64,000 bases of DNA from Candidatus Omnitrophica bacterium UBA6215. GTDB taxonomy: Bacteria > Omnitrophota > Gorgyraeia > Pluralincolimonadales > Pluralincolimonadaceae. Under the pieces are notes generated by a model. It was given only the letters and a program-made list of their open reading frames with translations, did no database searches and was not told where the DNA came from. Numbering within the stretch: position 1 is the stretch's first letter; each line of letters starts with the position of its first letter. Below are positions 9,963 to 30,228 of the stretch, piece by piece. Position numbers and translations under genes: made by a program. The stretch lies in assembly GCA_002421665.1 (NCBI GenBank), contig DISH01000007.1, forward strand, positions 81,278-145,277, in the 5' to 3' direction.

Positions 9963-11081
9963 TTAATTATTCGTTTCTTTCTCAAGTCTTTCAAGTTCTT
10001 TCCCGTAAACATCCTTAAATACACCCTTATAATTATCTTCGCTGATTTTTGAATATAACAACTTATACTTATCGATAGAATACCTATTTATTAAGTAATC
10101 ATAAAACAACAACAACTCCGCTTTTGCAACAGGATTATCCATATATAATGCCAAATTACTAAATATGTGCGATATTCCAATATGTTTGCCGGATCTTGCA
10201 ACGCAATCTTTTGCGTCTATAAGAGTTTTATTGTATTTCCACGTCATTTTAGATTCAATATAATCCGTAAATGTTTCGTTTAACAAAATTGGCGGATTTC
10301 CAATCTTTGAGGTTAAAATATGAGCAAGCTCGTGGGGATTATAGGAGAAATATGTTACTATCTTGTTTTTATCAGGATAAGCAACTCCAGCTGGCAACTC
10401 ATCATTAACTGAATATTTCGTAAACATGCAAAATTCTATTGCGGAAGTCACAATATAATAATCCACTTTACTATTAATAGTTATATTCAAATATTTACTT
10501 CCATATTCGAATTCTTTTTCAAGGATTTCAAATATCTTTTTATCATTTCCAAGAAATTTATATCTGGCTATTTTATCCTTATTTTGCGCGCCTTCAGATA
10601 CATCTGCAAATCTTTCTTTTTCATAATAAAATACTATTCTTCTTCCTTCGTAAGATTCCCACATTTTTGAATTTTTTATAACATACTCATCGTCAGTTAT
10701 AAGATATTTTCCATTATCATTAATGAACGGAATGGACATGATATATTCTTTCCCGCTGGGACGCAAACTTGCCTTAACTTGCAGTACAAAATAATCTCCT
10801 CTATTGCTTTCGCTTATAACAGTGAAATTTGAGGTTCTATACATAACGCTAATATCGTCAAACGCATTCCCTAAATACAACTTATAAATCCTGGATGATG
10901 GTAATATGCATTTGGAGACAATATCGCGATCTTTATTCTCCATGGCATGTACATAAGTTAGCCATGTTTCCGATGGAGTACCCAATTCAATCGCTCTATC
11001 ATGTCTACTCTGATGCTCAAACGCATTCAACACAATATAAATAGCGGCGAATATCAATAATACTGATAATATTTTTTTCAT
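9963..11081 (-). CDS. Secreted hypothetical protein with HExxH motif (HELAH), possible zinc-metallopeptidase-like; at the immunity position of cassette 11078-11572
   Basis: N-terminal signal/TM. An HELAH motif with a downstream Glu (LLNETF), A+T-rich. Its stop overlaps the upstream cassette start. Confidence 0.5.
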   Translation of the reverse strand: MKKILSVLLIFAAIYIVLNAFEHQSRHDRAIELGTPSETWLTYVHAMENKDRDIVSKCILPSSRIYKLYLGNAFDDISVMYRTSNFTVISESNRGDYFVLQVKASLRPSGKEYIMSIPFINDNGKYLITDDEYVIKNSKMWESYEGRRIVFYYEKERFADVSEGAQNKDKIARYKFLGNDKKIFEILEKEFEYGSKYLNITINSKVDYYIVTSAIEFCMFTKYSVNDELPAGVAYPDKNKIVTYFSYNPHELAHILTSKIGNPPILLNETFTDYIESKMTWKYNKTLIDAKDCVARSGKHIGISHIFSNLALYMDNPVAKAELLLFYDYLINRYSIDKYKLLYSKISEDNYKGVFKDVYGKELERLEKETNN

Positions 11082-11572
11082 TGCGATTTTACTCTATTGT
11101 TTTTTGTATCGTTCGTTTTCTCCCCATATGGAGTCTTATCATCATAGTTCCTTATTCCATCATTATCTGCATCATCATCGTATGGATTCACAATACCATC
11201 TCCATCCGTGTCAATAGGAACGGGTTCATTCGTCCAAGGATTTAAACCCCCGCTGTTATACTTTCTCCATATCTCATCAATGCCTCCTTCTCCTTCAATC
11301 CATTCTGGGTCATAGTTATTTTCTATATAGTTTTTTACATTCTTCTCGTATTGATTATCTGCCGGTCCTTGGCTTCCAACCTGCTGGTTTTGAAATGCTT
11401 CATACATGTCATTTAAACCAAATAACCCCCACGGATCCACCCAGTTGACGGGGTTGTTTTGGCAATAGGAGTAGATATTGGGCCCCGGTAGCTGGCCCAA
11501 GGGGTCTGGCTGGAGGAAGCGGCCTGTTTGGGGGTTGTAGTCCCTGTAGCGGTAGTAATAGAGGCCTGTCAT
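11078..11572 (-). CDS. Orphan Rhs-CT cassette with short core (LTGLYYYRYRDY…DPWGL) + Asp-rich CT (DTDGDGIVNPYDDDADNDG, Ca-binding-like)
   Basis: RHS core motif followed by DPWGL. The 5' end is fused directly to the stop of the previous immunity gene. Confidence 0.6.
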   Translation of the reverse strand: MTGLYYYRYRDYNPQTGRFLQPDPLGQLPGPNIYSYCQNNPVNWVDPWGLFGLNDMYEAFQNQQVGSQGPADNQYEKNVKNYIENNYDPEWIEGEGGIDEIWRKYNSGGLNPWTNEPVPIDTDGDGIVNPYDDDADNDGIRNYDDKTPYGEKTNDTKNNRVKSQ

Positions 11573-17553: not shown

Positions 17554-18186
17554 TTATATCTTATGTCTGCGTCTTAGCATAGATAATAAATCAACTATAA
17601 ATTTAAGCATAATTATTACAAACATAAATACCACAAACCAAGTCAGCATGCCATGAATATACCATAATCCAGATGTGACCCTAATTGGTTTGATCTCAAA
17701 TACTGTATCTCCGTCTGTTTTGTATCTATACTCATGCTGTCTGGCATGCTTTGAATCTTTCAATACCATAACAATAGAATACACTTTGCTATCCAAGGGC
17801 TTTATTACAAACTTCCCTGAAGTATATCCCTGATAATGCAATACATCTTCTAGATCCTTAATATACTTGGAGTAATTATCTGGTGGCAAGTACCTAAGAG
17901 TAGATAATTTCACATATCCGTCTTCTTTTTCGTTAACTATAATTTTCACTATGCCGGATTTGGCTTCCCTACATGATACTATTACTGCTCTTTCGGTTTT
18001 TCCTAATATCTCCGTATCTTTAAAGTATTTAGTTTTATACATATAGGATTGATCGGTGGGAAACATAAGGAACGATGAATTATCCTTTATATTTCTAGAG
18101 CTATCGGCGTTTCTTATAATGACGGCGCTAATAACAACGCTTATTAACACAGATATTACTATTAATGATTTGTAATTTCCTCTCAT
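17554..18186 (-). CDS. Putative immunity protein of the main Rhs toxin (N- and C-terminal TM segments)
   Basis: Starts 2 nt after the rhs stop; A+T-rich. Confidence 0.5.
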   Translation of the reverse strand: MRGNYKSLIVISVLISVVISAVIIRNADSSRNIKDNSSFLMFPTDQSYMYKTKYFKDTEILGKTERAVIVSCREAKSGIVKIIVNEKEDGYVKLSTLRYLPPDNYSKYIKDLEDVLHYQGYTSGKFVIKPLDSKVYSIVMVLKDSKHARQHEYRYKTDGDTVFEIKPIRVTSGLWYIHGMLTWFVVFMFVIIMLKFIVDLLSMLRRRHKI

Positions 18187-18187
18187 T

Positions 18188-21100
18188 CTACTCCCTTTTC
18201 GTATTGTCAGGAAAACAGTCCTTAAATTTCACTAAACCTATCCATAAATCGGTTGCCATTTCAATTGCGTTAATTTCCTCTTCAGAATAGTACTGATCAA
18301 GGTGATCGAAAATACCAACATTAGGATCAAAGATGGAATCAAATATGCTCCATCCTGGTTTTGCATAAAGATACGCTACGCTTGGAGGTACATTGGTTAA
18401 GTCTGCGAATCTTTCTAGCGTTAACGCCCAGTCTATATCGGTATCTCCATATATGGTCTCAGTGGTTAAATTAAATAGCTCGTAGCCGCTATCACCCCAC
18501 GTCGGATTATACTGTTCGGCAATCTCCTGATTCTCTAAACCCAAACCTATAATATGATTAATTATTTCCCTTTTTTCTTCTTCCGCCCAGATCCTTCTCT
18601 CTTCCATCCCCCACGGATCCACCCAGTTGACGGGGTTGTTTTGGCAGTAGGAGTAGATGTTAGGCCCCGGAAGCTGGCCTAAGGGGTCGGGCTGGAGGAA
18701 ACGGCCTGTTTCGGGGTTGTAGTCCCTGTAGCGGTAGTAATAGAGGCCTGTGAGGTCTTCTTTTGGTCTTCCCGTGAAGCCGTAGGGCTGGTCTATTAGC
18801 TTATCAAGGAGCAGGAACTGCTTTGAGCGGCTCGATACATGCCGCTCTCCGAAGGCGGTGTATTCGTAGGCCTGGATGGGCTTTGAATTGCCGTCAATAA
18901 GGCCTCTTATGCTGCCTTGGATGTCCTGGTAGTAGTATACAACAGGAGAAGCCTTGCGGGAAAGGATTTCATCGAGGCGGGGGCCCAATAGATACGATAC
19001 CTTGCGCTTGCCTATGAAGCCGGTGGAGGATTCGCGGATAACGGAGAAGTTATCATAAGTGTATTTGACGTTATTGCGGGCTATCCTTCTTCCGAAGGGG
19101 TCGTATTTGTAGGTTATATCCGAGAGGCCGACACGGGCGCCGGTCATCATATTGCGGCAGTTATAGGAGTATTCGGCGCGATCGTCCTTTATGAGGTTGC
19201 CGAGGGCGTCGTATTTATATTCCGCCGTGCCGCGCCTGATGAGCTGGTTGGCGGCGTTATACGTATAGGCGACCTCTTTGCCGCCGGCCGTCTCCTTTAC
19301 GCGGTTTCCGGCAGAGTCATAAGAATAAAACGCCGTTACGATGCCGGACTTCTCCGCGATAAGGCGGTATATTTTATCATATAGGTAATCCTTAACCCCG
19401 CCCGGGTTCTCTTCACTGACGATATTGCCGGCCGGATCGTAAGTATACTTGAAGAAATCCACGACCTTCTTGCCCGGGCCGGTTATTTCGATATTTTCAA
19501 GACGGCCGGACTTATCGTAAGAGTTGACCTGCGCTGTATCGTTAGGATAGAGCTTGGAGAGCAGTTTCCCGCCCGGGGTATAAGAATACCCGAACATCTC
19601 GTCGCCCTGGCGTATGCTAGACACGCGGTTGAGGGCGTCGTATTTATAAGCAACCTCATAACCTTCATCAAGGACGAGAGACGTCCTGTTGCCTTCGGCG
19701 TCGTAGGTATACGCGATCCTCTTGCGGGTATATGAATCCGCCTCCTCTATCAGCCGGTTCAGCGCGTCGTATTTGCGCGTGACTTCCGTTACCCCGTTCT
19801 TCGCCGACATGACGTTGCCGACGGCGTCGTAAGCATAGGTAACCGTATCATCGGGGTAGACGATCTTCGTGATCCTGCCGAATTCATCATATGAATAGGC
19901 CATCTTTCTGCCGTCCGCGAGGGCCTTCTCGGAAAGACGGCCCGCTGCATCATACGAAAACGCGGTCTTGCGTCCGAGCGGATCAGAGACGCTTTCTATC
20001 AAACCGAGTTTGTTGTAGGTGTAGCGCGTCGTGTTGCCGTTGCCATCGGTAACGGAAGCGAGCCTGCCGCCCTTGTCATAGGAATAGGCGGTCGTTATGC
20101 CTTCCGCGTCAAGCTTTTTCACTACCTTGCCGAGTTTATCATACTCGTAGCGGGTGGCGTTCCCGTTGGCGTCGATAATCCTGACGGCGCGCCCGGCAAG
20201 GTCGTATTCAACGCTCTTGTCCGTCCGGCCTTCCGTCTTGATCACGGTCAACCTGTCCAAGCCGTCGTATTCGAATTCTTTCTTTACCCCGTCAAAGTCG
20301 GCCTGCGCGACAATATTTCCGGAGAGGTCATAGCGCGCGGTCATCCTGCCGTTGGCCGGGTCTTTCACTGCGGTCAGGCGGCCGAGATGGTCGTATACGT
20401 AGCTCCATACATTATTATTGCGGTCGGCCTTCGATACTAAGTGCCCTGTTTCATCGTAACCGAGTTTAATGGTATTTCCGGACGGGTCTGTAACCTCCTC
20501 CATCCTGTTGAAGAAACCTTTCGTCCACTTGATTACGGTTACCCTTTTGAGCGGATCGGTTATTTTTGTCGGGTTCCCGAAAGCGTCGTACTCGTAAGAC
20601 ATCTCGTATGAACCGGACGCGGTTTCTTTAGCAACCTTGACGGGTTCATTATCCGCGTTGAAAGTATAAATTGTTACTAGCCCCGACGGCGAACACTCTT
20701 TGACAGCATTGCCTAAAGAGTCGTATTCGTATCTCGTAACGACGCCGTTGTTGTCTACGGAAAGCGCGTTGCCCAGGCCGTCCCTTTCGTAAGTTATTAC
20801 ACCGCCGTCCGGAATTACAGCGCGCGCGAGATACCCGTTAGCGTCATAAATAAATTCTGTTACGTTGCTTTCCGCATCGGTTATCTTCTCCGGCTTTCCG
20901 AGAGCGTTATAGGATATTTCCGTCGCATAGCCGAGCGGGTTCGTATATTTCAACAGGCGGCTGTTCGCATCATATGAATATTCTTCCTTGGCTCCGTCCG
21001 GGCGGGTCTTTCGTATGACATTGCCCCTGCCGTCATACTCAAATAACGTCACTCCGCCTCTTTGGTCAGTATATCTGGAAACGAGCTCTTTTTCGTTGTA

Positions 21101-23047
21101 TTCCTTCTGTTCGGCCCCGTTATCGAAGGCGGTTATCTTCACGAGGCATCTCTTATCATTGTAGTAGTAATTTTTGACGAGTTTGCCCAGTTCGTAGTAT
21201 TCGATATGGTTGTCTTTGTCGTTGTACTTGAACTCATAGACGGGTTTTTTATCGAGGAACTGCTTCAATACCCTGCGTGATTTGTCATATGCCGTGACAA
21301 GGGCCGTGCCGTCCGCGAATATCTTTTCCGACATATTGCCGCGCGAATCGTAAGAATACTTAACCAGCGAGCCGTCCGGCCGTTTGACATTCGTAACGGC
21401 GCCCGTCAAGGACGAATAACCGTAAGCGACCTCCCTGCCGGCATTGTCTTTCGCCTTGGTTATATGGCCGACATCGTTGTATTCGAATGCGATGGAGTTA
21501 CCGAGCTTATCCGTAACCTTCTCGAGAAAACCCGTTACCTTGCCGTATGAATAAACGAACCTGACGCCCTCGAGGTCCTCCATCCGGGCTATCCTGAAAT
21601 TGCCCTTCCTGCCGGAGGGTTCGAAACGGCACCTTACTCCGTCGGGATATTCCAGCGTGAAGTTTTCGCCGTCTTGTTTCAATAAAGCGAAATTCGACGG
21701 TTTCGCAGAAATATAAGCGTTCTTCGTGCCGTCGAATTCATAGACGAGCTCCTTCCAGTCGGAAGCCGTGACGACCGCCCTGCCGCGGGCTTCGACAGCC
21801 AAGTCCCACGAATAATCTGTGCTCCAGCCCTTGCCGAATCCCCTGTCCATTCGCCTCATGCTATTGTAATGGCGGGCAAGATTATGGCAGGGATAATTGC
21901 CGTTAAGATCGCGTTCGGTGGAGTAAAAATAACCGTCCGGCACGCATACCGGCTCGGCGACTTCATCGGTAGCTTCATTTTCAGCCGTTGTATCCTGCCC
22001 GGTCGAATCACCGGTTTCATCCGTCTGTTCCTCGGTCGTCTCGGTCTGCCCGTCAACCGTTTCTCCGTTGTTTTGCGGGCCGGCTCGCTCAGGCTCATTA
22101 ACATCAGTTATATTGTTTTCTACCTCATCAAATATACCAAGCTCTTGAAGATTTCCATATGTAAAACCCGCAGGTAAACCGTATTGTTCAACATATCCGT
22201 CAAGTGAAATACCGTAATAGTCCCCGACCTGCTCTTGCGCTCCGGAATAGCTTGGGCTAAAGTACGCCGTTCCGCTCTGGCTTTTCCCGCTTTCGCCGCT
22301 ATCCCCGCCACTGGAGCTTCCGGAAGATAACGAGACATTAACCGAGCTGCCCGATGAAGATGTTGAACCCGACGAAACTGTTGTCCCATCAATGCGTCTT
22401 TGCAAATTAACTATCCGGGCATCAAGCTCCTCTTCGGTCCATCCGTCCTGCAATTTTGCATGACGATATCTTAAATAGGCGGCCGCAGTTATGCCGTTAT
22501 TCATGAGTATTGTCATGAGCTCGGGATTACCGTTCATCAGTTCAGCAGTATCGGATAGCCCCACATTTATATATATATTAGCCGATATCTCATACTCCCG
22601 GACTTCATCGAGCACTTTATCCAGCAAAGACTGAGCCGTTCTCTTATAAGAATCATCCGTTTGCTGTTTTAAACTGAGTATCCAGTCATTAAGCGCCTGT
22701 TTTCCGCTTTCACCCTGGATCTGTGTATCGCGATAGTTCAAATATGTGCTTACCGATATGCCGTTGTTTTTTAAAATACTCGTTAAATCAGGGTTAGAGG
22801 TTTCAAAATTTTTTATCGTATCCGGGCTATAAGTAATCGTTCCTGAGGAAGACCCCTCATGTGTCTTTATATTGCCCAATATTTTGTCAAAAACCGCCGG
22901 AGCCTCTGTTGCTCCAGTTTTATTTCCCGAATTTTTCGCTTCTGTCGAGGAGAGAATAGCCGGCGAGGAATAAGCTAACGGAATAAGAATATATAAAGAA
23001 AAGATTGACATAATAATCGGGGTTACATAACGATTCACTCGTAACAT
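18188..23047 (-). CDS. rhs: Rhs/YD-repeat polymorphic toxin (1619 aa) with N-terminal Sec signal, tandem N-domains, YD repeats, RHS core (…DPLGQ…DPWGM) and ~138-aa C-terminal toxin domain
   Basis: Many YD repeats (YxYDxxGN/R…). A TIGR03696-like core, YRYRDYNPETGRFLQPDPLGQLPGPNIYSYCQNNPVNWVDPWGM, at ~18605-18740. Signal peptide MLRVNRYVTPIIMSIFSLYILIPLAYSSPA. Confidence 0.85.
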   Translation of the reverse strand: MLRVNRYVTPIIMSIFSLYILIPLAYSSPAILSSTEAKNSGNKTGATEAPAVFDKILGNIKTHEGSSSGTITYSPDTIKNFETSNPDLTSILKNNGISVSTYLNYRDTQIQGESGKQALNDWILSLKQQTDDSYKRTAQSLLDKVLDEVREYEISANIYINVGLSDTAELMNGNPELMTILMNNGITAAAYLRYRHAKLQDGWTEEELDARIVNLQRRIDGTTVSSGSTSSSGSSVNVSLSSGSSSGGDSGESGKSQSGTAYFSPSYSGAQEQVGDYYGISLDGYVEQYGLPAGFTYGNLQELGIFDEVENNITDVNEPERAGPQNNGETVDGQTETTEEQTDETGDSTGQDTTAENEATDEVAEPVCVPDGYFYSTERDLNGNYPCHNLARHYNSMRRMDRGFGKGWSTDYSWDLAVEARGRAVVTASDWKELVYEFDGTKNAYISAKPSNFALLKQDGENFTLEYPDGVRCRFEPSGRKGNFRIARMEDLEGVRFVYSYGKVTGFLEKVTDKLGNSIAFEYNDVGHITKAKDNAGREVAYGYSSLTGAVTNVKRPDGSLVKYSYDSRGNMSEKIFADGTALVTAYDKSRRVLKQFLDKKPVYEFKYNDKDNHIEYYELGKLVKNYYYNDKRCLVKITAFDNGAEQKEYNEKELVSRYTDQRGGVTLFEYDGRGNVIRKTRPDGAKEEYSYDANSRLLKYTNPLGYATEISYNALGKPEKITDAESNVTEFIYDANGYLARAVIPDGGVITYERDGLGNALSVDNNGVVTRYEYDSLGNAVKECSPSGLVTIYTFNADNEPVKVAKETASGSYEMSYEYDAFGNPTKITDPLKRVTVIKWTKGFFNRMEEVTDPSGNTIKLGYDETGHLVSKADRNNNVWSYVYDHLGRLTAVKDPANGRMTARYDLSGNIVAQADFDGVKKEFEYDGLDRLTVIKTEGRTDKSVEYDLAGRAVRIIDANGNATRYEYDKLGKVVKKLDAEGITTAYSYDKGGRLASVTDGNGNTTRYTYNKLGLIESVSDPLGRKTAFSYDAAGRLSEKALADGRKMAYSYDEFGRITKIVYPDDTVTYAYDAVGNVMSAKNGVTEVTRKYDALNRLIEEADSYTRKRIAYTYDAEGNRTSLVLDEGYEVAYKYDALNRVSSIRQGDEMFGYSYTPGGKLLSKLYPNDTAQVNSYDKSGRLENIEITGPGKKVVDFFKYTYDPAGNIVSEENPGGVKDYLYDKIYRLIAEKSGIVTAFYSYDSAGNRVKETAGGKEVAYTYNAANQLIRRGTAEYKYDALGNLIKDDRAEYSYNCRNMMTGARVGLSDITYKYDPFGRRIARNNVKYTYDNFSVIRESSTGFIGKRKVSYLLGPRLDEILSRKASPVVYYYQDIQGSIRGLIDGNSKPIQAYEYTAFGERHVSSRSKQFLLLDKLIDQPYGFTGRPKEDLTGLYYYRYRDYNPETGRFLQPDPLGQLPGPNIYSYCQNNPVNWVDPWGMEERRIWAEEEKREIINHIIGLGLENQEIAEQYNPTWGDSGYELFNLTTETIYGDTDIDWALTLERFADLTNVPPSVAYLYAKPGWSIFDSIFDPNVGIFDHLDQYYSEEEINAIEMATDLWIGLVKFKDCFPDNTKRE

Positions 23048-23056
23048 TTTATCTCC

Positions 23057-26000
23057 TCACTCCCGGATCAAGTATTCGCTTCCGGGTTTTTCAGACCTGA
23101 GTTTTTCGAAATATTTCTCGCTCTCTTCCAATAAACCCGCTTCCCTGTTTAACGTTCCCATATAATAAAGCGCGTCATCATAATAATCCGAATCCTTAAA
23201 TTGCAGCTCTATCCTCTTGAAAAGCGAATACGCGGCGGAATTTTCTCCCATCTTACGATCGCATAAAGCCATCTTGAACAATACCTCCGGGTTACCATCC
23301 GCATCCGGGTATTCGCGGTACTTGCGCAGCGCCGATTCATATTTACCGCTTTCCAGATATATGTTACCTACGGTCAAGAGGATATTCACATCCCTTGAAC
23401 TGTTATACGCCAATTCATATAGTTCTATAGATTCGGATGTCGAACCTTGTCTGTATAAAGCCGCGGCCTTATCTCTTATAAATCCCAATATTTCGGATTG
23501 GTCCGAAGCGTTATCAAGAGCGATTTTTAATCTTATGATCTCAAGGCGCCCCGAATAATACGGATAACCGCCTCGGAATAGATCTTCGAGTCTTTTCGAT
23601 TCCGCGGCGCACTTATCTCGTCCTTCCGAATCATAAACAGCTGCGAGATACTTCGAAAAAAACATATAAGCTATGGAAGGTCTTCCGGATTTTAAAGCGT
23701 ATTCCCCGGCTTCGCGGTAATAAATATTATCTTTTCCGTCCGAGGCCAAACCTGAAATCAGCGAATCCGCGGCTTTCTCGTAACCGGCGCCGCTTAAATA
23801 AACCACATCCTCGATAAACTTTCTCTTAACATCTTCGGAAAAGAACGTGTCTTTTACCGCGACAAGATAATCCTGCTCCGCCTTATCGGATGAAAGCAGG
23901 CCGGGCTTCCTTAATGATATCACAAAAAGAGTGAATAATTCATCCGCTCTATTTGAAGGGGATAATTTTGTGAAATCGAGAGAGGAAATGGCATCCGCCA
24001 TATTTTTATACACTTTATCCGATTCGTTAAAATATTCTTTAGCCGATTCTATGTCATCTGCGGTTAAAAGACCCTCTATGCGGGAAAATTTGGTTTTCGC
24101 ATTAGAAGAAATCGCGGGATCGGTCTGCCGCGGAACCGATTCTTCAACCGTCTGTCTGTTTAGCCCGGCTCTTTCCAGCCCCTTCTTGATTATTGGCGAG
24201 CGTCCTATCAACTTCCAGACAAGCCCGCTCCTGAAATTCTCCAGGGAAAGAAGCACAAGGCCGGTGTCTATCCCGAAGGACGTATCTGAAATCCATCTTT
24301 TATCGTCGTTGAACGCATTTTTAAGCCCGTACCTGCCCCATAATTCAGGCCGCGAGTAATAATACTTGGCGGCATTCATGGAATCAAACGGTGTAAATAT
24401 CATCGAACCGACAGATCCGCTTATGGAAACGGTTCCGTCGAACTCAGGCATGGGCTGCCCGCAAGGAACCGCCCCCATAGCCATAGTATAACCGTCTTCG
24501 GTCTCGCATGAGGATATCCCCCACGCGCCGTCTTTCAGGCTCCGGTATTTCCCGGAGTTATCAGCGCAATACGCTATTTGCGCCTTTATCGCGTTCCTGG
24601 AATTACCGTTCCAGTCTACGCCTTCTTTATCACGCATATCTCTGAGATCAAGCCAGATATTCGCGTACTGATAGGTAAAGAGCGAACCAGTCCAGCTTAC
24701 TACGAACCTTTTAGAATCTTTAAAAGATTTTTCTTGTCTTGTGAAACCGTAAAAAACTTCCTCGGGAGTTTTATCATCCGTTCCCAGAGCCAGCACAGAC
24801 ACCAATAATATCTCATCGGTATAATAATTCCATTTCGCCTTCATCATCTTGTCTTCAGGCGTCCATCCCATGAATATCCGGTTATCAGCACCGGTCATTT
24901 TGTGCCATTCCACGGCTTTCACTAACTTATATCCGAGTTCGGAGACATCTTCGCCAAAATACTCGGAAACGGCGATTATGCCGTACATTAGTATAGCGGT
25001 ATCTACGGTGGATATTTCGGCTGCGCCGGCTCTCCTGCCCGTATCCGCCTGCAAAAAGTGATAAAAGAAACCGTCCTTTCTGTTTTCAAGCGAGTCGAGC
25101 GTCTCCAGGCATTTTAGAGCGCGCGTCCGGGCCTCATCATGGGACATCCAACCGTTCTCCGCGCCGATACAAAGGGCGGCAAGACCAAAACCGGTGGAGG
25201 CTATGCTTGAATCGCCGCCGCCCGAGGCGTCTCTAAAAAGGCCCGTGTGCTTATTTTGCTCGCAGGCAAAATACAAAAAAGCCCTATTCTCTATATAAGA
25301 AAGGAATTCCATATCGTTTTCAAAACTTAACGGACGATTGGATACTTCTGACATATCCCCTACTCCTATCGCGCGTTCAAGCTCGCCTTTCCTCAGTCCG
25401 CACGAAGCATGCGCTTCCATCAGTTCGTATCCGGCCTTCGCATAAAGCGCTTCCGCGTCAAGTACATCCTGGTTGGTGGCCTGACCATTATTAAAACGCG
25501 AAAGCTGCTTGCTGAATTCCTCGCTAATACTGTTATAGAAACGTTTGGCAGCGACGATCTCTTTAAGGGAAATATCATAATTGGTATAAGCGTTCCTCAC
25601 TCCCAGGGCGAGCCTGTTGATTTCCGCTTCGCATTCCTTTTTTACCTGCAATCCTTCGATTTGGGATGCCTTCATCTCATTATAATTCCTGCCCCAATCC
25701 CATATATCAAAATTTATTGATACCCCTACGGACTTTTCTGTGCCGTCCTCGGACGAATCAAATTTATTCCCTATTTTGCCGTACGCGTCTATCTCGGGCA
25801 AAAGCCCCGCCCTGGCAATTGCGGTTTCCGTTCCGGCATTCTTCTCTTTGAGTGCAATCTCGGTCATCCCGGGATTCCTGGCAAGACATATGTTTGTCGC
25901 TTCTTCCATAGTAAGGCTTACATCCAGATTACGCGACGGGTATTCGATTTCGTAATCGGTATCCAGCGGAACGTTCAACACATAATTAAGGTGATTTCTG

Positions 26001-26617
26001 GACAAATAGTACCCGTTGAGGATTTGAACATGTTCAAGCTGGGCTTTATCAAGAATCGACTTTGTTTTAAGGACATCGACTTTTGGAACAAGCCCCTGTT
26101 TGTACATCTTGTTAACGTTTTCATAGTGGCTGCCTACTACTTTCTCTATCTCTTCGCTAACCTTCATCAGTTCGGAATATTTCATTGTTTCGAAAAATGC
26201 TTTTTTTACATCAAACGCCACATCAAGTTCTTTTATCAGGGCTTTTACGGAAGCGACATCTTTAAGGTTCCTGTATAATTCCTTTGTATAATAAAGCCGT
26301 CCGCCCTTCCATATCGGCTGTACTATCTCCTCGCTCACAAGCCAACCTTTATTGGCGGAATCACTTGAATATTCATCGCTGGAAAATCTGCTGTAGTTGC
26401 TGATCTTCGGGAACATCTCCGCAGATTTAGACTTGAATTTATAGTCCGATTTCTGTTTTTCAAGATTCGCTATATCTATATCGGGACTGTTTTTTACGGC
26501 AATATCTATAGCCTGCCGAAGCGTCAATTTCTCCGCGGCAACATCTCTTGCCGGGATCGCCGCCAATAAAACGAAAATGACCGCCGAGAATGTTATAAAT
26601 TTATAGTTTTGTTTCAT
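23057..26617 (-). CDS. Tripartite fusion protein: TolC-like outer-membrane efflux (OEP) domain + (alpha/alpha)-barrel glucoamylase-like (PF10091/GH144-like, putative beta-1,2-glucanase) domain + C-terminal TPR repeats
   Basis: N-terminal signal peptide, then TLRQAIDIAVKNSPDIDIANLE…, typical of OEP repeats. The middle region (aa ~450-830) is clearly homologous to the protein at 51088-53358 (SIASTGFGLAALC/ASIASVGFGLPALC, GFFYHFLQ/GFYYHFLD, NAAKYYYS/NAAKYMYS). The C-terminus has TPR units. Confidence 0.65.
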   Translation of the reverse strand: MKQNYKFITFSAVIFVLLAAIPARDVAAEKLTLRQAIDIAVKNSPDIDIANLEKQKSDYKFKSKSAEMFPKISNYSRFSSDEYSSDSANKGWLVSEEIVQPIWKGGRLYYTKELYRNLKDVASVKALIKELDVAFDVKKAFFETMKYSELMKVSEEIEKVVGSHYENVNKMYKQGLVPKVDVLKTKSILDKAQLEHVQILNGYYLSRNHLNYVLNVPLDTDYEIEYPSRNLDVSLTMEEATNICLARNPGMTEIALKEKNAGTETAIARAGLLPEIDAYGKIGNKFDSSEDGTEKSVGVSINFDIWDWGRNYNEMKASQIEGLQVKKECEAEINRLALGVRNAYTNYDISLKEIVAAKRFYNSISEEFSKQLSRFNNGQATNQDVLDAEALYAKAGYELMEAHASCGLRKGELERAIGVGDMSEVSNRPLSFENDMEFLSYIENRAFLYFACEQNKHTGLFRDASGGGDSSIASTGFGLAALCIGAENGWMSHDEARTRALKCLETLDSLENRKDGFFYHFLQADTGRRAGAAEISTVDTAILMYGIIAVSEYFGEDVSELGYKLVKAVEWHKMTGADNRIFMGWTPEDKMMKAKWNYYTDEILLVSVLALGTDDKTPEEVFYGFTRQEKSFKDSKRFVVSWTGSLFTYQYANIWLDLRDMRDKEGVDWNGNSRNAIKAQIAYCADNSGKYRSLKDGAWGISSCETEDGYTMAMGAVPCGQPMPEFDGTVSISGSVGSMIFTPFDSMNAAKYYYSRPELWGRYGLKNAFNDDKRWISDTSFGIDTGLVLLSLENFRSGLVWKLIGRSPIIKKGLERAGLNRQTVEESVPRQTDPAISSNAKTKFSRIEGLLTADDIESAKEYFNESDKVYKNMADAISSLDFTKLSPSNRADELFTLFVISLRKPGLLSSDKAEQDYLVAVKDTFFSEDVKRKFIEDVVYLSGAGYEKAADSLISGLASDGKDNIYYREAGEYALKSGRPSIAYMFFSKYLAAVYDSEGRDKCAAESKRLEDLFRGGYPYYSGRLEIIRLKIALDNASDQSEILGFIRDKAAALYRQGSTSESIELYELAYNSSRDVNILLTVGNIYLESGKYESALRKYREYPDADGNPEVLFKMALCDRKMGENSAAYSLFKRIELQFKDSDYYDDALYYMGTLNREAGLLEESEKYFEKLRSEKPGSEYLIRE

Positions 26618-26624
26618 AATGATT

Positions 26625-27581
26625 TCAGCTTGAAAGCATATATATCAGTTTATCCTTGATCGTCTTCCAAAAACAGGTTTTGCCCGTATTTATACTCACA
26701 AACGCGCTCATACCGGTCCTGAGATCTTTCGGAACTTCTTCCTTGAAATCTATAAGAACGTTTATAACATTCTCCTTTACTATCAACCTGTCCTCTTTTT
26801 CCCAAAAAATCGGCCTTATCTCCCTTAATTCCCCTTTGTATATCTTTTCAGGAAAAGCGTAGAATCTTACAGCCGCCGGTAATCCGATTTTTGCGTACTG
26901 GATCTTTTTTTCCTCTATCGGGAACTCCAATAGAAACTTTGAATTGTCGACAACCTGACATATTCTTTCGCCCTTTTCGACCACTGAAGCCGATTTATCC
27001 TTGAGCTTCCCGACAACAACCCCTCTCATAGGGCTTTTGACTCGCGTCATTTCAACGCATTTCAGCAGGTATTCCCTTCTCTTCAAAAGGATATCAAATT
27101 CCTGTTTATTTATTTCAAGCTCATGGCGCGCGTTATTGTACTTAAGACGGGTCAGCTCCATCTCGGCAGGGGCTATAACTTCGTCATTATAGAGATTGAG
27201 ATTCCTGTCCAGAACTTTCCTGTGCCAAGCTATCTCCTCTTCCAGTTTCTTAGTCTCTTCACTCAAAATTATCTCTTTTTTGTAAGATGTATCGAGTTCG
27301 GAAACAAGCTCCAGGTTCTTGATCTCCAGCAAATCATCCCCTTCTTTAACAAAGCTGCCTTCGTCCGCGAAAATACCCGAAATTATTCCGGATTGGAAAG
27401 CGTCAATATAGCAGTACCTTTCCGGCACCACTCTCGCGATACCGCTTATGCTCCTTCCAAAAGGAACAAAACCGCAAATCACGATAACAACAATAAATAC
27501 CAGGAATTTCCTGTTATATTCTCTTGCTATCTTTTTCTTTTCTTGTTCGGTAGATTTAAATAGATCGGGTTTTTCGTTCAT
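26625..27581 (-). CDS. HlyD-family membrane fusion protein (periplasmic adaptor)
   Basis: Single N-terminal TM, coiled-coil hairpin and a C-terminal beta domain. Confidence 0.65.
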   Translation of the reverse strand: MNEKPDLFKSTEQEKKKIAREYNRKFLVFIVVIVICGFVPFGRSISGIARVVPERYCYIDAFQSGIISGIFADEGSFVKEGDDLLEIKNLELVSELDTSYKKEIILSEETKKLEEEIAWHRKVLDRNLNLYNDEVIAPAEMELTRLKYNNARHELEINKQEFDILLKRREYLLKCVEMTRVKSPMRGVVVGKLKDKSASVVEKGERICQVVDNSKFLLEFPIEEKKIQYAKIGLPAAVRFYAFPEKIYKGELREIRPIFWEKEDRLIVKENVINVLIDFKEEVPKDLRTGMSAFVSINTGKTCFWKTIKDKLIYMLSS

Positions 27582-27582
27582 T

Positions 27583-29181
27583 TTATTCGCTCCTCATTGC
27601 GGTAAGGTAAACTACCGGTACTGCCGCTACAAAACTGATTATAAACGGGGAACTGATTATCAGCCAATGCGTTGAATATTTCAGGCCGAGATAAACACAT
27701 ATTAAACCGAATAAGGTCCCGGGGAGAAGGCTCTTGACGGTCTCGAATAAAGTAATCCCCTCGAGAGGATTCTTTTTCATGGGTTTCCAGTTAAACCTGT
27801 TAAAAGGCATCAACAGCAGATCCATTGTAATATAAAAAACATTATTTAACGCTACAAGGGTTGAGAACAATACTTCCAAAATCAAATTGGTAACATCTTT
27901 CATAGAACGGCAGGCAACCAGTTTATGAAAAGCCATTATAAGAAGTGAGCCTATAAGCATTGTCGAAAGTTCAAGGTCTATCATGGAATAACCGATAAAA
28001 GCGTATCTTTGAAAACTCAATAACTGCCCGCCAATTTCAGAAGCACAGAAGAACCCGGAAATAAGCCACAAAAGAAGGAGCACATGCGCAAGATAGGAAT
28101 AAACACAATAACCTATATGATATCTTGTGGCTAAGGATATGCCCGGCAAAAAAGGCAGACTCCACGCCTGAAAAGTTCCTTTTGCCCAACGGCTGTCTCG
28201 TTTTCTCGCCTCGAGGTAGTTGCCGGGAACTTCTTCATAGCTGACTATATCCTCGCAAAAACATGTTCTGTAACCTATTTGATCGAGATATGCGGTCTCC
28301 CAAATGTCGTGGCATATAATCCCTTTCCTAAGCCTGACCCTCGAGAACGGGTCAATCCGTATGATATTTCCATGGCCAACCGACATTGACCTCTCAAATA
28401 TTCTCCAGACCGCCGTTACATTAAACCTTTGAGAAGATTCGGTCGCAAGCGCTATAAACTTGCTAAAAAAAGTCTTAGCGTGTATTACCCTTATCCCTCC
28501 CTGAAAAATAGCTATGTCCGAATTATCAGGGTGTTCGGCTTTATCTATGAATTTTTGAACTGTACCCGCAGGCATTACACTGTCGGCATCGCACACTATC
28601 ATGTATTTGTAATACCCGCCTTTATCTCCGATCCAATCGCTTATATTGCCTTGTTTCTTCTCGACGGGGTCAGGTCGGTTCCTGTAATTGACGGGAACAT
28701 TTTTAAACTCTATGCGGAGTTTTTCGACTATGTCTTTCTCATATTCAAGAACCTGACCTTTTGAATCGCTAAGAATCCAAAAATGCACATTATCTTCTTT
28801 ATTATTCTCTATGGTATATCTTATCCTTTCGTACAAACCGAACGCCTCGTCTTTAACAGGATACACAACGGCAGTCATTGGATTGACGGCCGGCCTGGCT
28901 TCGGGCAATATATTAGGGCTTGAGAAGAAATAGAATATCGCCTGAGTTAAAGCGAGGCAAACGTTATACACAAGAACACAAAAACCGGATAACCACAATA
29001 GGGGGAACAACATATTCCCCTCTTCAAAAATTATCATCCCCGCCATTATATATGTAACTACGAAAGTCAAAATAAAGGCGGTGAAGACAAAAAGATATCC
29101 CCTTGTCGTATTTTTTCTTTTCATTTTATTATTATAAGGTGATTGGTTATACAAGTTTAGCATAAATCGGGGATTGTTCAA
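27583..29181 (-). CDS. opgH: OpgH/MdoH-family glucan biosynthesis glucosyltransferase (GT2, membrane-embedded)
   Basis: DxD motif (CDADS) and IICHDIWETAYL…SYEEVPGNYLEARKRDSRWAKGT align with E. coli MdoH ILSHDFVEAALM…[23 protein letters not shown]. Multiple TM helices flank the catalytic domain. Alternative starts exist at M7 and M20. Confidence 0.75.
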   Translation of the reverse strand: MNNPRFMLNLYNQSPYNNKMKRKNTTRGYLFVFTAFILTFVVTYIMAGMIIFEEGNMLFPLLWLSGFCVLVYNVCLALTQAIFYFFSSPNILPEARPAVNPMTAVVYPVKDEAFGLYERIRYTIENNKEDNVHFWILSDSKGQVLEYEKDIVEKLRIEFKNVPVNYRNRPDPVEKKQGNISDWIGDKGGYYKYMIVCDADSVMPAGTVQKFIDKAEHPDNSDIAIFQGGIRVIHAKTFFSKFIALATESSQRFNVTAVWRIFERSMSVGHGNIIRIDPFSRVRLRKGIICHDIWETAYLDQIGYRTCFCEDIVSYEEVPGNYLEARKRDSRWAKGTFQAWSLPFLPGISLATRYHIGYCVYSYLAHVLLLLWLISGFFCASEIGGQLLSFQRYAFIGYSMIDLELSTMLIGSLLIMAFHKLVACRSMKDVTNLILEVLFSTLVALNNVFYITMDLLLMPFNRFNWKPMKKNPLEGITLFETVKSLLPGTLFGLICVYLGLKYSTHWLIISSPFIISFVAAVPVVYLTAMRSE

Positions 29182-29256: not shown

Positions 29257-30228
29257 TCAATTCCTGCGTTCCAGGACGTAATCGGCGATGTCATAGAATG
29301 TCTTCCTTAACATGCCGTCCGACTCGGTGAGCTTCTTCTTGGCAAGCCTGATATAATTAAAGGCTATGGTCCTCGATCGGGATACCGCACCGGAAGTCAA
29401 GGCCCTTTGCTTCAATATGCGGTGGGATGATTTTCCCCCGGCAGTAATAAGGTCCATTATCTTTGCCCTCTCCCTGCGGCCGGCCCCCTCCAACATGAAT
29501 ATTATCGGGAGGGTAAGCTTGCCCTCGTCTATATCCTGCCACACGGACTTGCCGAGGCTCTTCTCCTGGCCTATCAGGTCGAGACAGTCATCGATGATCT
29601 GGAAAGCCATACCCAGGTAAAGACCGTATGCGGCCAGGCGGTCAACCTTCTCCCTGCTGAGCCCTCCAAGCATGGCCCCCGCAGTACAGCAATCGGATAT
29701 AAGATACGCGCTCTTGCGCTTGATTATGTCCAGGTATTCCTGTTCGGTCATCCCGAAATTATAGGTATTGGAAAGCTGGGCGAGTTCTCCTTCACACATG
29801 CGGGCGGCAGTCTTTGAGAAGACCTTCATTATCTCGGGCTCTTCTATCTTCGACACGATATCAAAAGCCCTTGCCAGGAGGTAATCGCCGGCTATTACCG
29901 ATATGGCATTACCCCATTTTCTGTTGAGGGTCTTCTGCCTGCGGCGCAGGACGGCGTCATCGATGATATCATCGTGGATAAGGCTTGCGGCATGTATGAG
30001 TTCGATAGCGACACCGACAGATATTGCCTTATCCATCTTGGCACCGTCGCCCATTTTCGCGGAAAGCAGGACAAGCATTGGCCTGAAGAATTTGCCGTGC
30101 GTCCTGGAAAGGTATTTGCCTATGCCTTTTATAGGTTCCGCCTGCCATCTGAGCTGGTGGGCGTAATTGCTTTTAACAACGGCAAGTTCGGCTTTTACGG
30201 GCCTGACTATATCTTCGAGGTCGTTCAA
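29257..30228 (-). CDS. ispB: Polyprenyl diphosphate synthase (IspB/heptaprenyl-type)
   Basis: Two DDxxD motifs (LIHDDIIDDA, FQIIDDCLD). Confidence 0.8.
   Translation of the reverse strand: MNDLEDIVRPVKAELAVVKSNYAHQLRWQAEPIKGIGKYLSRTHGKFFRPMLVLLSAKMGDGAKMDKAISVGVAIELIHAASLIHDDIIDDAVLRRRQKTLNRKWGNAISVIAGDYLLARAFDIVSKIEEPEIMKVFSKTAARMCEGELAQLSNTYNFGMTEQEYLDIIKRKSAYLISDCCTAGAMLGGLSREKVDRLAAYGLYLGMAFQIIDDCLDLIGQEKSLGKSVWQDIDEGKLTLPIIFMLEGAGRRERAKIMDLITAGGKSSHRILKQRALTSGAVSRSRTIAFNYIRLAKKKLTESDGMLRKTFYDIADYVLERRN

Follow-up and report, generated by a model that had tools for sequence, protein, structure and literature searches.

A putative synthase-adaptor-TolC locus for glucan secretion with a channel-borne glucanase-like domain in an Omnitrophica genome

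We analyzed a 64,000-nt stretch of contig DISH01000007.1 (GCA_002421665.1, Candidatus Omnitrophica bacterium UBA6215, an uncultured member of the Omnitrophota), hereafter the window, whose positions serve as coordinates throughout. It contains a locus that we interpret, at a probability of about 60%, as a synthase-dependent, tripartite synthase-adaptor-TolC system for polysaccharide secretion, probably of beta-1,2-glucan, with a periplasmic glucanase built in. Its parts are an OpgH-like family-2 glycosyltransferase (GT2), an HlyD-type membrane fusion protein (MFP) and a single polypeptide in which a TolC-type outer-membrane channel (OEP) domain is followed by a GH144-type domain and a TPR module.

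The gene run and its synthase-adaptor pair

The sequence-only reading had described three co-directional, tightly spaced genes, and this arrangement holds: the ORFs of the GT2, the MFP and the fusion protein lie exactly where they had been placed, all on the same strand, with gaps of 1 nt (GT2-MFP) and 7 nt (MFP-fusion). However, the same-strand run comprises five genes rather than three, since that reading missed an RHS gene, which starts 9 nt beyond the end of the fusion gene, and a gene for a 210-aa protein, a further 1 nt 3' of the RHS gene (Table 1).

Table 1. Genes and domains of the five-gene run, in window positions
Feature	Position	Strand	Evidence
OpgH/MdoH-like GT2, putative inner-membrane synthase-translocase	27583..29181	-	Pfam, NCBIfam, E. 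coli OpgH alignment, TM scan
HlyD/EmrA-type MFP (putative periplasmic adaptor)	26625..27581	-	Pfam, NCBIfam, TM scan, gene linkage
Fusion protein, 1186 aa	23057..26617	-	ORF, Pfam
Sec signal peptide of fusion protein	26534..26617	-	sequence read directly, hydrophobic segment
TolC-type OEP domain of fusion protein	25358..26533	-	Pfam, TIGR01844, AF2, Foldseek
GH144-type domain of fusion protein	24152..25336	-	PF10091, PDB matches, Foldseek, residue mapping
TPR module of fusion protein	23057..24106	-	Pfam TPR families, AF2, stand-alone homologs
RHS/YD-repeat polymorphic toxin, 1619 aa	18188..23047	-	Pfam, NCBIfam, synteny
210-aa two-TM protein, candidate immunity protein	17554..18186	-	ORF, TM scan, position

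The GT2 ORF begins with TTG and encodes 532 aa; because relatives start at internal ATGs (526 or 513 aa), the true start is probably at 29163 or 29124. The product had been called an unmistakable OpgH/MdoH homolog. Consistent with this, its NCBIfam matches were to MdoH models only (best E 1e-57), its tblastn matches on plasmids were all annotated as mdoH, and the CDADS and SYEEVPGNYLEARKRDSRWAKGT motifs both occur in it, in alignment with E. coli OpgH (25% identity over 521 residues, E 3e-22). However, the score is below every curated MdoH cut-off in NCBIfam (196 bits vs 419), and the label has to be softened accordingly: judging from its sequence, the protein is an OpgH-like processive family-2 glycosyltransferase rather than an OpgH equivalog, and, given the low identity and sub-threshold scores, its linkage specificity is not secured. 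Pfam assigned it to Glyco_trans_2_3 (E 3e-10) and returned no PilZ domain; in the TM scan, 2 hydrophobic segments lie in the N-terminal part and at least 5 in the C-terminal part, and the residues D198xD200, H291-D292 and R328xxR331-W332 are invariant in 24 homologs. In fold comparisons, the match to Cgs was just marginally ahead of that to BcsA.

The distance from characterized OpgH and the nearly equal fold match to BcsA would also fit the same tripartite exporter handling another beta-glucan or a heteropolymer, with this polymer or a foreign glycan as the substrate of the PF10091 domain of the fusion protein. We regard a different polymer as unlikely, given that NCBIfam and tblastn point to MdoH alone and that the fused domain is closest to the proven beta-1,2-glucanases XcSGL and CpSGL, as detailed below.

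The second gene had been assigned to an HlyD adaptor, in agreement with the Pfam matches of its 318-aa product to HlyD_3 (E 1.4e-12) and HlyD_D23 (E 1.8e-11); the NCBIfam models RND_mfp and type_I_hlyD matched as well, both under their cut-offs. The protein has a single N-terminal TM helix (~aa 27-45, TM scan), a lipoyl domain, an alpha-hairpin and a beta-barrel domain.

A TolC-type channel fused to glucanase-like and TPR modules

The fusion protein starts with a signal peptide (~aa 1-28, cleavage ...ARDVAA/EK), in which direct reading of the sequence revealed no lipobox cysteine; the only hydrophobic segment in the TM scan was N-terminal (5-23). The OEP domain that follows (~aa 29-420) consists of two structural repeats, each with 2 beta-strands, one long helix and one half-length helix. 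Pfam matches both repeats (E 7e-46), and TIGR01844 (TolC family) matches at E 1e-30, under its cut-off. In the AF2 model (pLDDT ~90), the repeats comprise E71-104/H107-173/H179-214 and E275-302/H305-376/H382-417, and Foldseek recovered TolC, CusC, OprM and others with TMt of 0.68-0.76 over 400-440 columns. Pfam, AF2 and Foldseek thus agree with the TolC-type N-terminus proposed earlier, which in the model is a complete TolC fold, predicted to be 12-strand-competent.

The middle part (~aa 428-822) is a GH144-type domain of the SGL clan with an (alpha/alpha)6 fold. PF10091 (Glycoamylase) matches at 596-806 (E 2.6e-50), sequence matches in the PDB include XcSGL (8xul, E 5e-40), CpSGL (5gzh, E 7e-32) and BDI_3064 (5z06), and Foldseek matches have TMt of 0.70-0.73. 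Both the PF10091/GH144-like nature of this domain and its homology to the protein encoded at 51088-53358 (31% identity, E 2e-72) had been correctly recognized. In the alignment, E211, E142, D135, F268, Y330 and D400 of CpSGL correspond to E602, D539, E534, F647, Y710 and D784 of the fusion protein, respectively, and D139 to S536, the same pattern as in active XcSGL. The domain keeps the catalytic and subsite residues of both enzymes, and fusion homologs with identity down to 28-33% invariably retain E602 (general acid), D539 (candidate base) and the clan-defining F647 and Y710. By these criteria it looks like a catalytically competent, beta-1,2-glucanase-like domain. Sophorohydrolase is another activity of the GH144-type family, and the only activities that we know of in this family are on beta-1,2-glucans or beta-1,2-glucooligosaccharides. 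Its endo-glucanases act on beta-1,2-glucans, and relatives in the SGL clan, for the glucanases of which residue roles have been described, include the GH189 transglycosylase of Cgs (PMC12102758).

The C-terminal TPR repeats noted earlier are borne out by matches of TPR_2, TPR_6, TPR_14 and TPR_19 at 1050-1180 (Pfam) and by an all-helical module (~aa 838-1186), modeled by AF2 as helix-turn-helix repeats at 838-1185, after a low-confidence linker (823-837). Whether fused or separate, this module is always secreted. Relatives at 57-79% identity and one 33% relative encode it as a separate secreted protein, with a stand-alone TPR gene, carrying its own signal peptide, following OEP::GH144 at loci L001, L002, L093 and L099; a shorter module is again fused in L162 and P0139. 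The OEP::GH144 fusion itself is rare, occurring in about 8 clusters among 1.84 billion representatives. The triple fusion highlighted by the sequence-only reading is thus present in the window but not fixed, the TPR module being separate in many relatives and most members of the GT2 family having a plain OEP without a glucanase.

The C-terminus of TolC lies at the equatorial level, outside of the periplasmic barrel. By this topology, the GH144 domain would leave the OEP at the equatorial level and be periplasmic, outside the channel lumen, which would place three glucanase/TPR units per trimer beside the conduit and, if the conduit is sealed, out of contact with the exported chain. Together with the AF2 model, such a placement would suit an OPG-like system, in which beta-1,2-glucan is kept periplasmic, the GH144 domain replaces OpgG/OpgD as hydrolase, transglycosylase or cyclase, and the OEP is an anchor or an exit for small oligosaccharides. 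Canonical OpgH has a periplasmic beta-1,2-glucanase-type partner (opgG adjoins E. coli opgH, and OpgD adjoins Leptospira mdoH), the roles of OpgG/OpgD-type partners being described in PMC10514313, and the GH189 transglycosylase within the SGL clan points in the same direction. Nevertheless, an OPG-like system appears improbable: the complete TolC fold that has been kept is more than a simple anchor, and periplasmic retention leaves unexplained the MFP beside nearly every GT2, the TolC-like gene in most of the loci described below and the lack of a glucanase in most family members. We infer export across the outer membrane instead.

Conservation of the cassette and the linked RHS gene

The neighborhood was compared among 80 metagenomic loci with a GT2 homolog (35-100% GT2 identity). 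In 71 of 72 testable loci, the gene directly downstream of the GT2 encodes an MFP homolog, and in 41 of 63 the gene directly upstream encodes a plain TolC-like OEP; most of the other loci that extend far enough have OEP::GH144 or a giant RHS protein instead. Clades of the GT2 tree match partner architecture, and in the clade of the window the OEP carries GH144, with the TPR module fused or separate. Moreover, OEP::GH144 adjoins GT2-MFP in at least four deep lineages (the window clade and, at 33-47% identity, L003, L103 and L162), in two different gene orders; in the L006-L008 lineage, the 3.2 kb upstream of OEP::GH144 contain neither a GT2 nor an MFP. The co-conservation of GT2, MFP and OEP-GH genes, on which the earlier interpretation depended, is therefore strong. 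Because the cassettes of most family members, namely the plain-OEP clade, do not include a glucanase, this enzyme is not obligatory. In the same clade, a sugar-1-phosphate nucleotidylyltransferase gene is located 3' of the MFP in 35/59 loci; it is assignable to no single sugar, which would be compatible with a polymer other than beta-1,2-glucan.

Public annotations ('multidrug resistance efflux pump' for the adaptor, and 'outer membrane protein TolC' or 'glucoamylase family protein' for the fusion) might suggest an ordinary efflux adaptor and channel pair lying by chance beside an unrelated glycosyltransferase. An ABC, RND or MFS pump is the usual partner of an MFP and an OEP, and no such gene was found in the GT2-MFP-OEP cassette. 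With adjacency recurring across independent loci and partners tracking the GT2 phylogeny, chance juxtaposition is effectively refuted by the neighborhood statistics.

The RHS protein consists of an N-terminal signal/anchor segment, a conserved N-terminal domain of ~330 aa, DUF6531, an RHS core and a variable C-terminus (Pfam RHS_repeat, E 7e-105, and DUF6531; NCBIfam YD_repeat and Rhs_assc_core). From the sequence, its gene is probably co-transcribed with the fusion gene. An RHS gene with the same N-terminal domain lies 3' of the TPR module in every window-clade locus (L001, L002, L093, L095, L096, L097 and L099), overlapping by 4 nt in L093. The 210-aa protein, which has two hydrophobic segments (TM scan) and no match in the Pfam search, is, from its position, a candidate cognate immunity protein. 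In a separate GT2 clade, GT2-MFP is directly followed by RHS/YD proteins of >2200 aa (L143, RHS_repeat E 4e-158), inside which there is a weak, profile-only GH144-like match. No RHS gene was found in the L003, L103 and L162 lineages or in the large plain-OEP clade.

The linkage in the window clade and the giant-protein clade could mean that the operon serves primarily to deploy RHS toxins, with the glucan, the channel-borne glucanase and the TPR module displaying, tethering or releasing a Sec-exported RHS protein against host or prey. We consider this very unlikely, because synteny within one clade may reflect inheritance rather than function, the deeper lineages and the plain-OEP clade do without the RHS gene, and the GH144-like match in the giant proteins is weak. 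In addition, we know of no mechanism by which an RHS protein would be linked to glucans or, where an ATPase is lacking, to TolC.

Proposed export route and relation to known systems

In the synthase-adaptor-TolC machine that we favor, the inner-membrane GT2 would, by homology, polymerize a glucan, most likely beta-1,2-linked, from NDP-glucose and thread it through its own TM channel. Gene linkage and family knowledge suggest that the single-TM adaptor would sit over the synthase, bridging the periplasm to the trimeric TolC-like channel, through which the polymer would leave the cell; to our knowledge, GT2-MFP docking has no structural demonstration, even for the Xcs and Bgs systems discussed below. 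The glucanase may act like BcsZ, AlgL, PelA, XcsC or OpgG/OpgD, trimming or releasing chains and clearing stray periplasmic polymer, and could perhaps set chain length, whereas the TPR part might be a scaffold for assembly or polysaccharide handling.

The OPG systems of E. coli and Leptospira (OpgH/MdoH with OpgG/OpgD) contain the nearest synthase sequence family and likewise couple a synthase for beta-1,2-glucan to a beta-1,2-glucanase-type protein in the periplasm. However, E. coli OpgH has 847 aa, and the GT2 described here is without its N-terminal cytoplasmic region and C-terminal extension; the partner is GH186 there and GH144 here; and classical OPG systems, the products of which are periplasmic, are without the MFP and TolC channel added here. 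The endo-beta-1,2-glucanases CpSGL (5gzh) and XcSGL (8xul) (PMC12102758) share fold, sequence family, and catalytic and clan-defining residues with the fused domain, but are soluble, stand-alone and degradative, whereas the predicted glucanase is carried C-terminally by an outer-membrane channel protein that belongs to a biosynthetic operon. Bcs, Pga, Alg and Pel, too, combine a synthase in the inner membrane with a TPR scaffold and a glycoside hydrolase or lyase in the periplasm and with an exit in the outer membrane. There, the polymer leaves through a monomeric beta-barrel porin of 16-18 strands with the TPR fused or bound (BcsC, PgaA, AlgK/E, PelB/C), whereas here the exit would be a trimeric TolC-fold channel reached via an MFP, with both TPR and hydrolase fused to the channel.

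The sequence-only reading considered a synthase coupled through an HlyD adaptor to TolC to be undescribed, but there are precedents in XcsA-XcsB-XcsC/TolC (PMC12430437) and BgsA-BgsB-TolC (PMC13438883); in the literature we found no such system described with an OpgH-type synthase, with TolC encoded in the operon or with a TolC::glucanase::TPR fusion. For the rhizobial mixed-linkage beta-glucan, BgsA and BgsB genetically require TolC for polymer production and a tripartite complex has been proposed, although a direct role of TolC is still unproven according to the authors (PMC13438883). As here, a GT2 synthase and an MFP share an operon, but BgsA is cellulose-synthase-like and c-di-GMP-activated, TolC is the housekeeping channel common to other systems, and neither a glycanase nor a TPR module is dedicated to the system. 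The cyanobacterial cellulose system, XcsA (GT2), XcsB (HlyD) and XcsC (endoglucanase) with TolC (Maeda et al. 2018, reviewed in PMC12430437, where the Xcs-TolC model is termed unvalidated), similarly combines a processive membrane GT2, an adjoining HlyD-type adaptor, a cognate endoglycanase encoded in the same cluster and, as proposed, a TolC-type exit instead of a BcsC-type beta-barrel porin. Its synthase, however, is BcsA-like, carries PilZ (c-di-GMP) and makes beta-1,4-glucan, and its TolC is encoded elsewhere; here, the synthase is OpgH-like without PilZ, and the TolC gene lies within the cassette, fused to GH144, rather than a cellulase, and to TPR. The operon thus lends genomic support to the still-unproven synthase-adaptor-TolC route of polysaccharide secretion.

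Layout of the locus and identity of the synthase

Five co-directional open reading frames (ORFs) run along the minus strand of the window from 29181 down to 17554, with gaps of 1, 7, 9 and 1 nt. They encode an OpgH/MdoH-like synthase (GT2), an HlyD-type adaptor (MFP), a fusion protein that joins a TolC-type channel domain (OEP) to a GH144-type glucanase-like domain and a TPR module, an RHS/YD-repeat protein and a small protein with two hydrophobic segments. The ORF check returned exactly the coordinates claimed for the first three genes in the sequence-only reading, and the three-gene observation itself (GT2, MFP, OEP::GH144::TPR) was borne out. The GT2 ORF opens with a TTG codon; because close relatives measure 526 or 513 aa, an internal ATG is probably the true start. 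Scans for promoter and terminator consensus sequences, which are not informative for the host phylum, gave results at or near shuffle expectation, and the 1-9 nt spacing is the basis on which co-transcription of the operon is predicted.

Features of the operon and of other loci in the window
Feature	Position	Strand	Length
OpgH/MdoH-like synthase (GT2)	27583-29181	-	532 aa
HlyD-type adaptor (MFP)	26625-27581	-	318 aa
OEP::GH144::TPR fusion protein	23057-26617	-	1186 aa
TPR module of the fusion protein	23057-24106		
RHS/YD-repeat protein	18188-23047	-	1619 aa
Protein with two hydrophobic segments	17554-18186	-	210 aa
Polyprenyl synthase	29257-30228		
Orphan RHS C-terminal cassette	11078-11572	-	
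Protein with weak Peptidase_MA_2 match	9963-11081	-	372 aa
Protein of TPR repeats	8141-9121	-	326 aa
GH116 beta-glucosidase	48865-51087	-	740 aa
Secreted CBM30-GH144 protein	51088-53358	-	756 aa
Nucleotidylyltransferase-like ORF	62032-62781	-	

The low G+C content of the 8-30 kb region raised the question of a mobile island bearing the operon. This was rejected: relatives conserve the leuCD-mdh-citramalate synthase synteny on the flanks, and the operon itself is therefore chromosomal and stable. The part with very low G+C is the region of the RHS gene and the orphan cassettes, and the 8-23 kb stretch has a G+C content of 0.35-0.45, compared with 0.51 in the flanks. The polyprenyl synthase gene upstream of GT2 was likewise rejected as a member of the system, since other genes separate it from GT2 in the related locus L001.

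All nine NCBIfam matches of GT2 were to MdoH models and to no other family, each under its curated cut-off; the best, NF003958, reached 195.7 bits against a cut-off of 419 (E 1e-57, GT2 residues 20-530). BLASTP aligned GT2 with E. coli OpgH from OpgH residue 112 at 25% identity over 521 residues (E 3e-22), and every tblastn match of GT2 in the plasmid collection was annotated mdoH. The protein is polytopic, with two N-terminal and at least five C-terminal hydrophobic segments, and carries the motifs of processive GT2 enzymes (D, DxD, catalytic-base D, R/QxxRW); D198xD200, H291-D292 and R328xxR331-W332 are invariant across 24 GT2 homologs and align with E. coli OpgH. Neither a PilZ nor another regulatory domain was found in the 532 residues with Pfam and NCBIfam, the family matches being to MdoH and not to BcsA. 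The sequence had no match among PDB chains at E<=1e-3. Its AlphaFold2 (AF2) model (pTM 0.87) has a membrane synthase fold, for which Foldseek matched Cgs, followed by BcsA and hyaluronan synthases (HAS). As judged from sequence and model, GT2 belongs to a broadly defined OpgH family and is a predicted processive synthase that forms a channel. The earlier identification as an OpgH homolog thus holds for the family, to which all NCBIfam matches lead, but not for the equivalog, scores lying below the MdoH equivalog cut-offs.

Adaptor, channel and fused glucanase-like domain

Pfam assigned HlyD_3, HlyD_D23 and a weak Biotin_lipoyl match to the adaptor, which scored under the cut-offs of the curated NCBIfam subfamilies. 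It has a single transmembrane anchor (residues 27-45) and the lipoyl/barrel-sandwich, alpha-hairpin and beta-barrel domains of HlyD/EmrA-type proteins. In the fusion protein, Pfam found two OEP repeats (E 7e-46), PF10091 'Glycoamylase' at residues 596-806 (E 2.6e-50) and TPR families at 1050-1180, so that the OEP, PF10091/GH144, TPR and HlyD matches foreseen from sequence were all recovered. A Sec signal peptide without lipobox precedes the channel domain, which scored 106.9 against TIGR01844, below the cut-off of 225.

The AF2 model of the fusion protein, built on 11 homologs (mean pLDDT 77.7), gives the OEP part the topology of a TolC protomer, with beta-barrel and long alpha-barrel portions, at a pLDDT of about 90. 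Each of its two repeats consists of a beta-hairpin, a helix of ~70 residues and one of ~36 residues (E71-104/H107-173/H179-214 and E275-302/H305-376/H382-417). Behind them the model places a mixed helical domain at 435-820, then a disordered linker at 823-837, and it ends in helix-turn-helix repeats that reach the C-terminus. Foldseek matched the model in the PDB to TolC, CusC, OprM and related channels (target-normalised TM-score 0.68-0.76) and to the GH144 structures 4gl3, 8xul (XcSGL) and 5gzk (CpSGL) (0.70-0.73). No outer-membrane 16-18-strand beta-barrel porin domain was found in the operon with Pfam, AF2 or Foldseek. The last half-length helix of TolC ends in the equatorial domain (structure 1EK9); therefore, according to the model, the glucanase and TPR parts must sit in the periplasm on the outer side of the alpha-barrel, three per predicted trimer.

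The glucanase-like part is a PF10091-type (alpha/alpha)6 domain, nearest to characterised GH144 enzymes; its closest solved relatives by sequence are two beta-1,2-glucanases, XcSGL (E 5e-40) and CpSGL (E 7e-32), and the sophorohydrolase BDI_3064. Residues with roles assigned in CpSGL (Nakajima et al. 2025, PMC12102758) were mapped through a sequence alignment of the two domains.

Residues of CpSGL and their counterparts in the fusion protein
CpSGL residue	Role in CpSGL	Fusion protein residue
E211	General acid	E602
E142	Most plausible general base	D539
D135	Candidate acidic residue	E534
D139	Candidate acidic residue	S536
F268	Clan-defining Phe near nucleophilic water	F647
Y330	Clan-defining subsite -3 Tyr	Y710
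D400	Conserved acidic residue	D784

Active XcSGL shows the E534/S536 pattern as well, and every OEP::GH144 homolog, including those at 28-33% identity, keeps E602, D539, F647 and Y710. With its catalytic and clan-defining residues kept, the domain looks catalytically competent. As the sequence-only reading had proposed, it is homologous to the secreted CBM30-GH144 protein encoded elsewhere in the window (31% identity, E 2e-72). The latter has a CBM30-like N-terminus and a GH2_N-like sugar-binding C-terminus around its GH144 domain, and its gene abuts, stop to start, that of a GH116 beta-glucosidase; by domain content the two look like a pair for degradation of beta-1,2-glucan or sophoro-oligosaccharides in the same genome.

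Conservation of the cassette and linkage to RHS genes

The exact fusion protein is present on 13 public contigs, and fused versions of 1186-1189 aa occur in several independent assemblies; an assembly artefact is thereby excluded. The gene order GT2-MFP-OEP::GH144-TPR-RHS is retained in relatives at 57-92% identity. At the loci L001, L002, L093 and L099, a gene of its own encodes the TPR module, complete with a signal peptide, and overlaps the stop before it. Separate modules lie at 12468-13607 in L001, 5276-6430 in L093 and 600-1439 (-) in L003, the overlap with the upstream stop being 4-14 nt. The DNA at the OEP::GH144/TPR junction cannot be aligned between fused and split forms, so that fusion or fission replaced the linker and signal-peptide segment. 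More distant loci have GT2-MFP-OEP::GH144 (L103), the same with a short fused TPR (L162), a TPR gene two genes past MFP (L102) or, in a 33% relative (L003), GT2-MFP-TPR divergent from OEP::GH144.

We surveyed 80 metagenomic loci carrying a GT2 homolog (35-100% identity), annotated with profiles built from the window proteins; the scan query was a 9-sequence subset of the GT2 alignment, the full 24-sequence alignment being too diverse. MFP lies directly downstream of GT2 on the same strand, the adjacency of Xcs/Bgs-type tripartite secretion, in 71 of the 72 loci with at least 1.2 kb of downstream sequence; in the single exception it lies directly upstream. A plain TolC-like gene of ~450 aa directly precedes GT2 in 41 of the 63 loci with at least 1.5 kb of upstream sequence, and most of the remaining loci with enough sequence have OEP::GH144 or an RHS/YD protein of >2200 aa directly after MFP. 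These three architectures correspond to three clades in the neighbour-joining tree of GT2, all separated from E. coli OpgH by a long branch. None of the cassettes examined contains an ABC, RND or MFS pump.

The full OEP+GH144 architecture is rare: HMMER, run exhaustively on 1.84 billion cluster representatives, found it in only about eight clusters, two of them also with TPR, and the representatives P0134-P0139 and P0155 come without contig placement. A further profile-based homolog search gave no new fusion members. Among the matches listed in a genome-contig scan with the OEP::GH144 alignment (two GH144 motifs) there were GH144-only proteins and no fusion; the window's own genome is not among them, and the scan is no taxonomic census of the fusion. 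As a counter-example, three loci (L006-L008) have OEP::GH144 with neither GT2 nor MFP in the 3.2 kb visible upstream.

The commonest cassette, found in the plain-OEP clade (L011, L104 and about 33 more loci), reads VirB10/TrbI-like - OEP - GT2 - MFP - sugar-1-phosphate nucleotidylyltransferase. In L011 it closes a T4SS-like cluster (VirB4/TraC, CagX/VirB9, TrbI) and is followed by DUF1016, HTH_17 and an integrase, a neighbourhood that suggests a link of this cassette to type IV secretion or a conjugative element. The window contains no VirB10-like gene. About 33 kb from the operon, it has an ORF similar to the nucleotidylyltransferase of the plain-OEP clade (E 4.5e-10), which could supply the NDP-sugar donor.

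In every window-clade locus, the TPR module is followed by an RHS gene with a conserved ~330-aa N-terminal domain. The RHS/YD-repeat toxin of the window has a signal-like N-terminus and starts 9 nt past the fusion gene; the two-TM protein encoded after it is possibly its immunity protein. Further along, the orphan RHS C-terminal cassette repeats the core-end motif GLYYYRYRDYNP.TGRFLQPDPLGQLPGPNIYSYCQNNPVNWVDPWG; a protein made almost wholly of 8 canonical TPR repeats and the Peptidase_MA_2-like protein are also encoded among RHS orphan cassettes.

A separate GT2 clade with no OEP nearby (L113, L135, L141, L143, L148, L153, L165 and L168) has an ORF of >2200 aa directly after GT2-MFP, running off the contig. 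These giant ORFs have ~1400 N-terminal residues that are unknown or Big/Glucodextran_B-like, followed by DUF6531 and an RHS core (RHS_repeat E 4e-158 in L143). A GH144-like segment in L113 and L165 was detected with our own HMM (E 1e-12 and 1e-7) and in Pfam at 24.8 bits, below cut-off. BLASTP of this segment against the window GH144 domain gave no match, and with a profile-only signal we do not claim a GH144::RHS fusion.

The synteny of RHS genes and the glucan system may be inherited or reflect a functional link, the latter being unlikely. We consider it quite improbable that the five genes, from synthase to small membrane protein, form one unit for glycan-assisted toxin display or delivery. 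If they did, an RHS toxin exported by Sec would be tethered, coated or released on the surface of ultra-small Omnitrophota cells by beta-1,2-glucan that passes through the TolC-type channel and is cut by its glucanase, with host or prey cells as targets. The sister clade with RHS proteins of >2200 aa right after GT2-MFP would then represent another form of this arrangement.

Proposed secretion model and comparison with known systems

From the observed anatomy and gene linkage, the simplest model using every part is synthase-dependent secretion by three components in series, for which we infer product, assembly and export. The OpgH-like GT2 would make and translocate the glucan, the single-TM adaptor would bridge to the TolC-like channel, and the polymer would exit through the latter, with the channel-borne GH144 and TPR parts in the roles played elsewhere by BcsZ/BcsC-TPR, AlgL/AlgK, PelA/PelB or XcsC. 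For a beta-1,2-glucan backbone made from UDP-glucose, the support is indirect and comes from the fused GH144 and from the match to the Cgs fold; two independent lines, the OpgH/Cgs affinity of the synthase and the GH144 identity of the hydrolase, point to the beta-1,2 linkage. A physical assembly of GT2, MFP and TolC, and a need for TolC in polymer production, are predictions from gene linkage, namely OEP in 41/63 cassettes and the fused forms.

A real difficulty for the export model is that the GH144 hydrolase lies outside the TolC tunnel; its substrate would be chains in the periplasm, whether polymer that took a wrong route, chain ends or a pool released on purpose. The position leaves some, though low, probability for an alternative, a system resembling that of osmoregulated periplasmic glucans in which the glucan stays in the periplasm. 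The operon and the cassettes of its relatives contain no OpgG/OpgD-like gene (GH186); the neighbours there are MFP and OEP.

Under the secretion model, the OpgH family would probably extend from periplasmic-glucan synthesis to a secretion system, and extracellular or surface beta-1,2-glucan is predicted in Omnitrophota, an uncultured phylum whose members are suspected to depend on hosts. The system goes unseen in public annotation, which is generic ('multidrug efflux pump', 'glucoamylase family protein'). The compact three-gene cassettes could be tried in E. coli.

Coupling of a synthase to TolC through HlyD, part of what the sequence-only reading took to be undescribed, has precedents. That reading is partly supported: its domain identities hold and the genes are co-conserved, but the synthase-adaptor-TolC concept is not new. 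For cyanobacterial cellulose (Xcs), XcsA-XcsB(HlyD)-TolC with the endoglucanase XcsC was proposed by Maeda et al. 2018 (per PMC12430437), a model called unvalidated partly because the TolC gene lies apart from that of the synthase (PMC12430437). For the rhizobial mixed-linkage beta-glucan (Bgs), TolC is required along with BgsA/BgsB (Ruiz-Saez et al. 2026, PMC13438883), and an indirect role of TolC was not excluded (PMC13438883). A direct TolC role is stressed as unproven for both (PMC12430437, PMC13438883).

Our literature search, directed at OpgH in combination with membrane fusion proteins and TolC and at giant proteins of Omnitrophota, found no description of the system, nor of an OpgH-type synthase in a synthase-adaptor-TolC system, a TolC gene as a constant cassette member, or a covalent fusion of channel, glucan hydrolase and TPR scaffold. 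To the question whether TolC-type channels export polysaccharides directly, this locus and its family contribute the missing genomic argument: a dedicated TolC-like gene in the synthase-adaptor cassette across dozens of lineages in several phyla and, in one clade, a Rosetta-stone fusion that puts the channel, a predicted glucan-specific hydrolase and a TPR scaffold on one polypeptide. Strong comparative-genomic support and a tractable test case for TolC-mediated polysaccharide export would be its main value.

Whereas TolC is encoded elsewhere in Xcs and Bgs, the TolC-like gene here lies inside the cassette; their synthases are BcsA-like with a c-di-GMP-binding PilZ or C-terminal domain, and the window GT2 has neither. 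Canonical mdoH loci are paired with opgG or opgD, the window-type GT2 instead with MFP and OEP. In the classical Bcs, Pga, Alg and Pel systems a porin bears or binds the TPR, whereas here the TPR is joined to, or encoded after, a protein of TolC fold.
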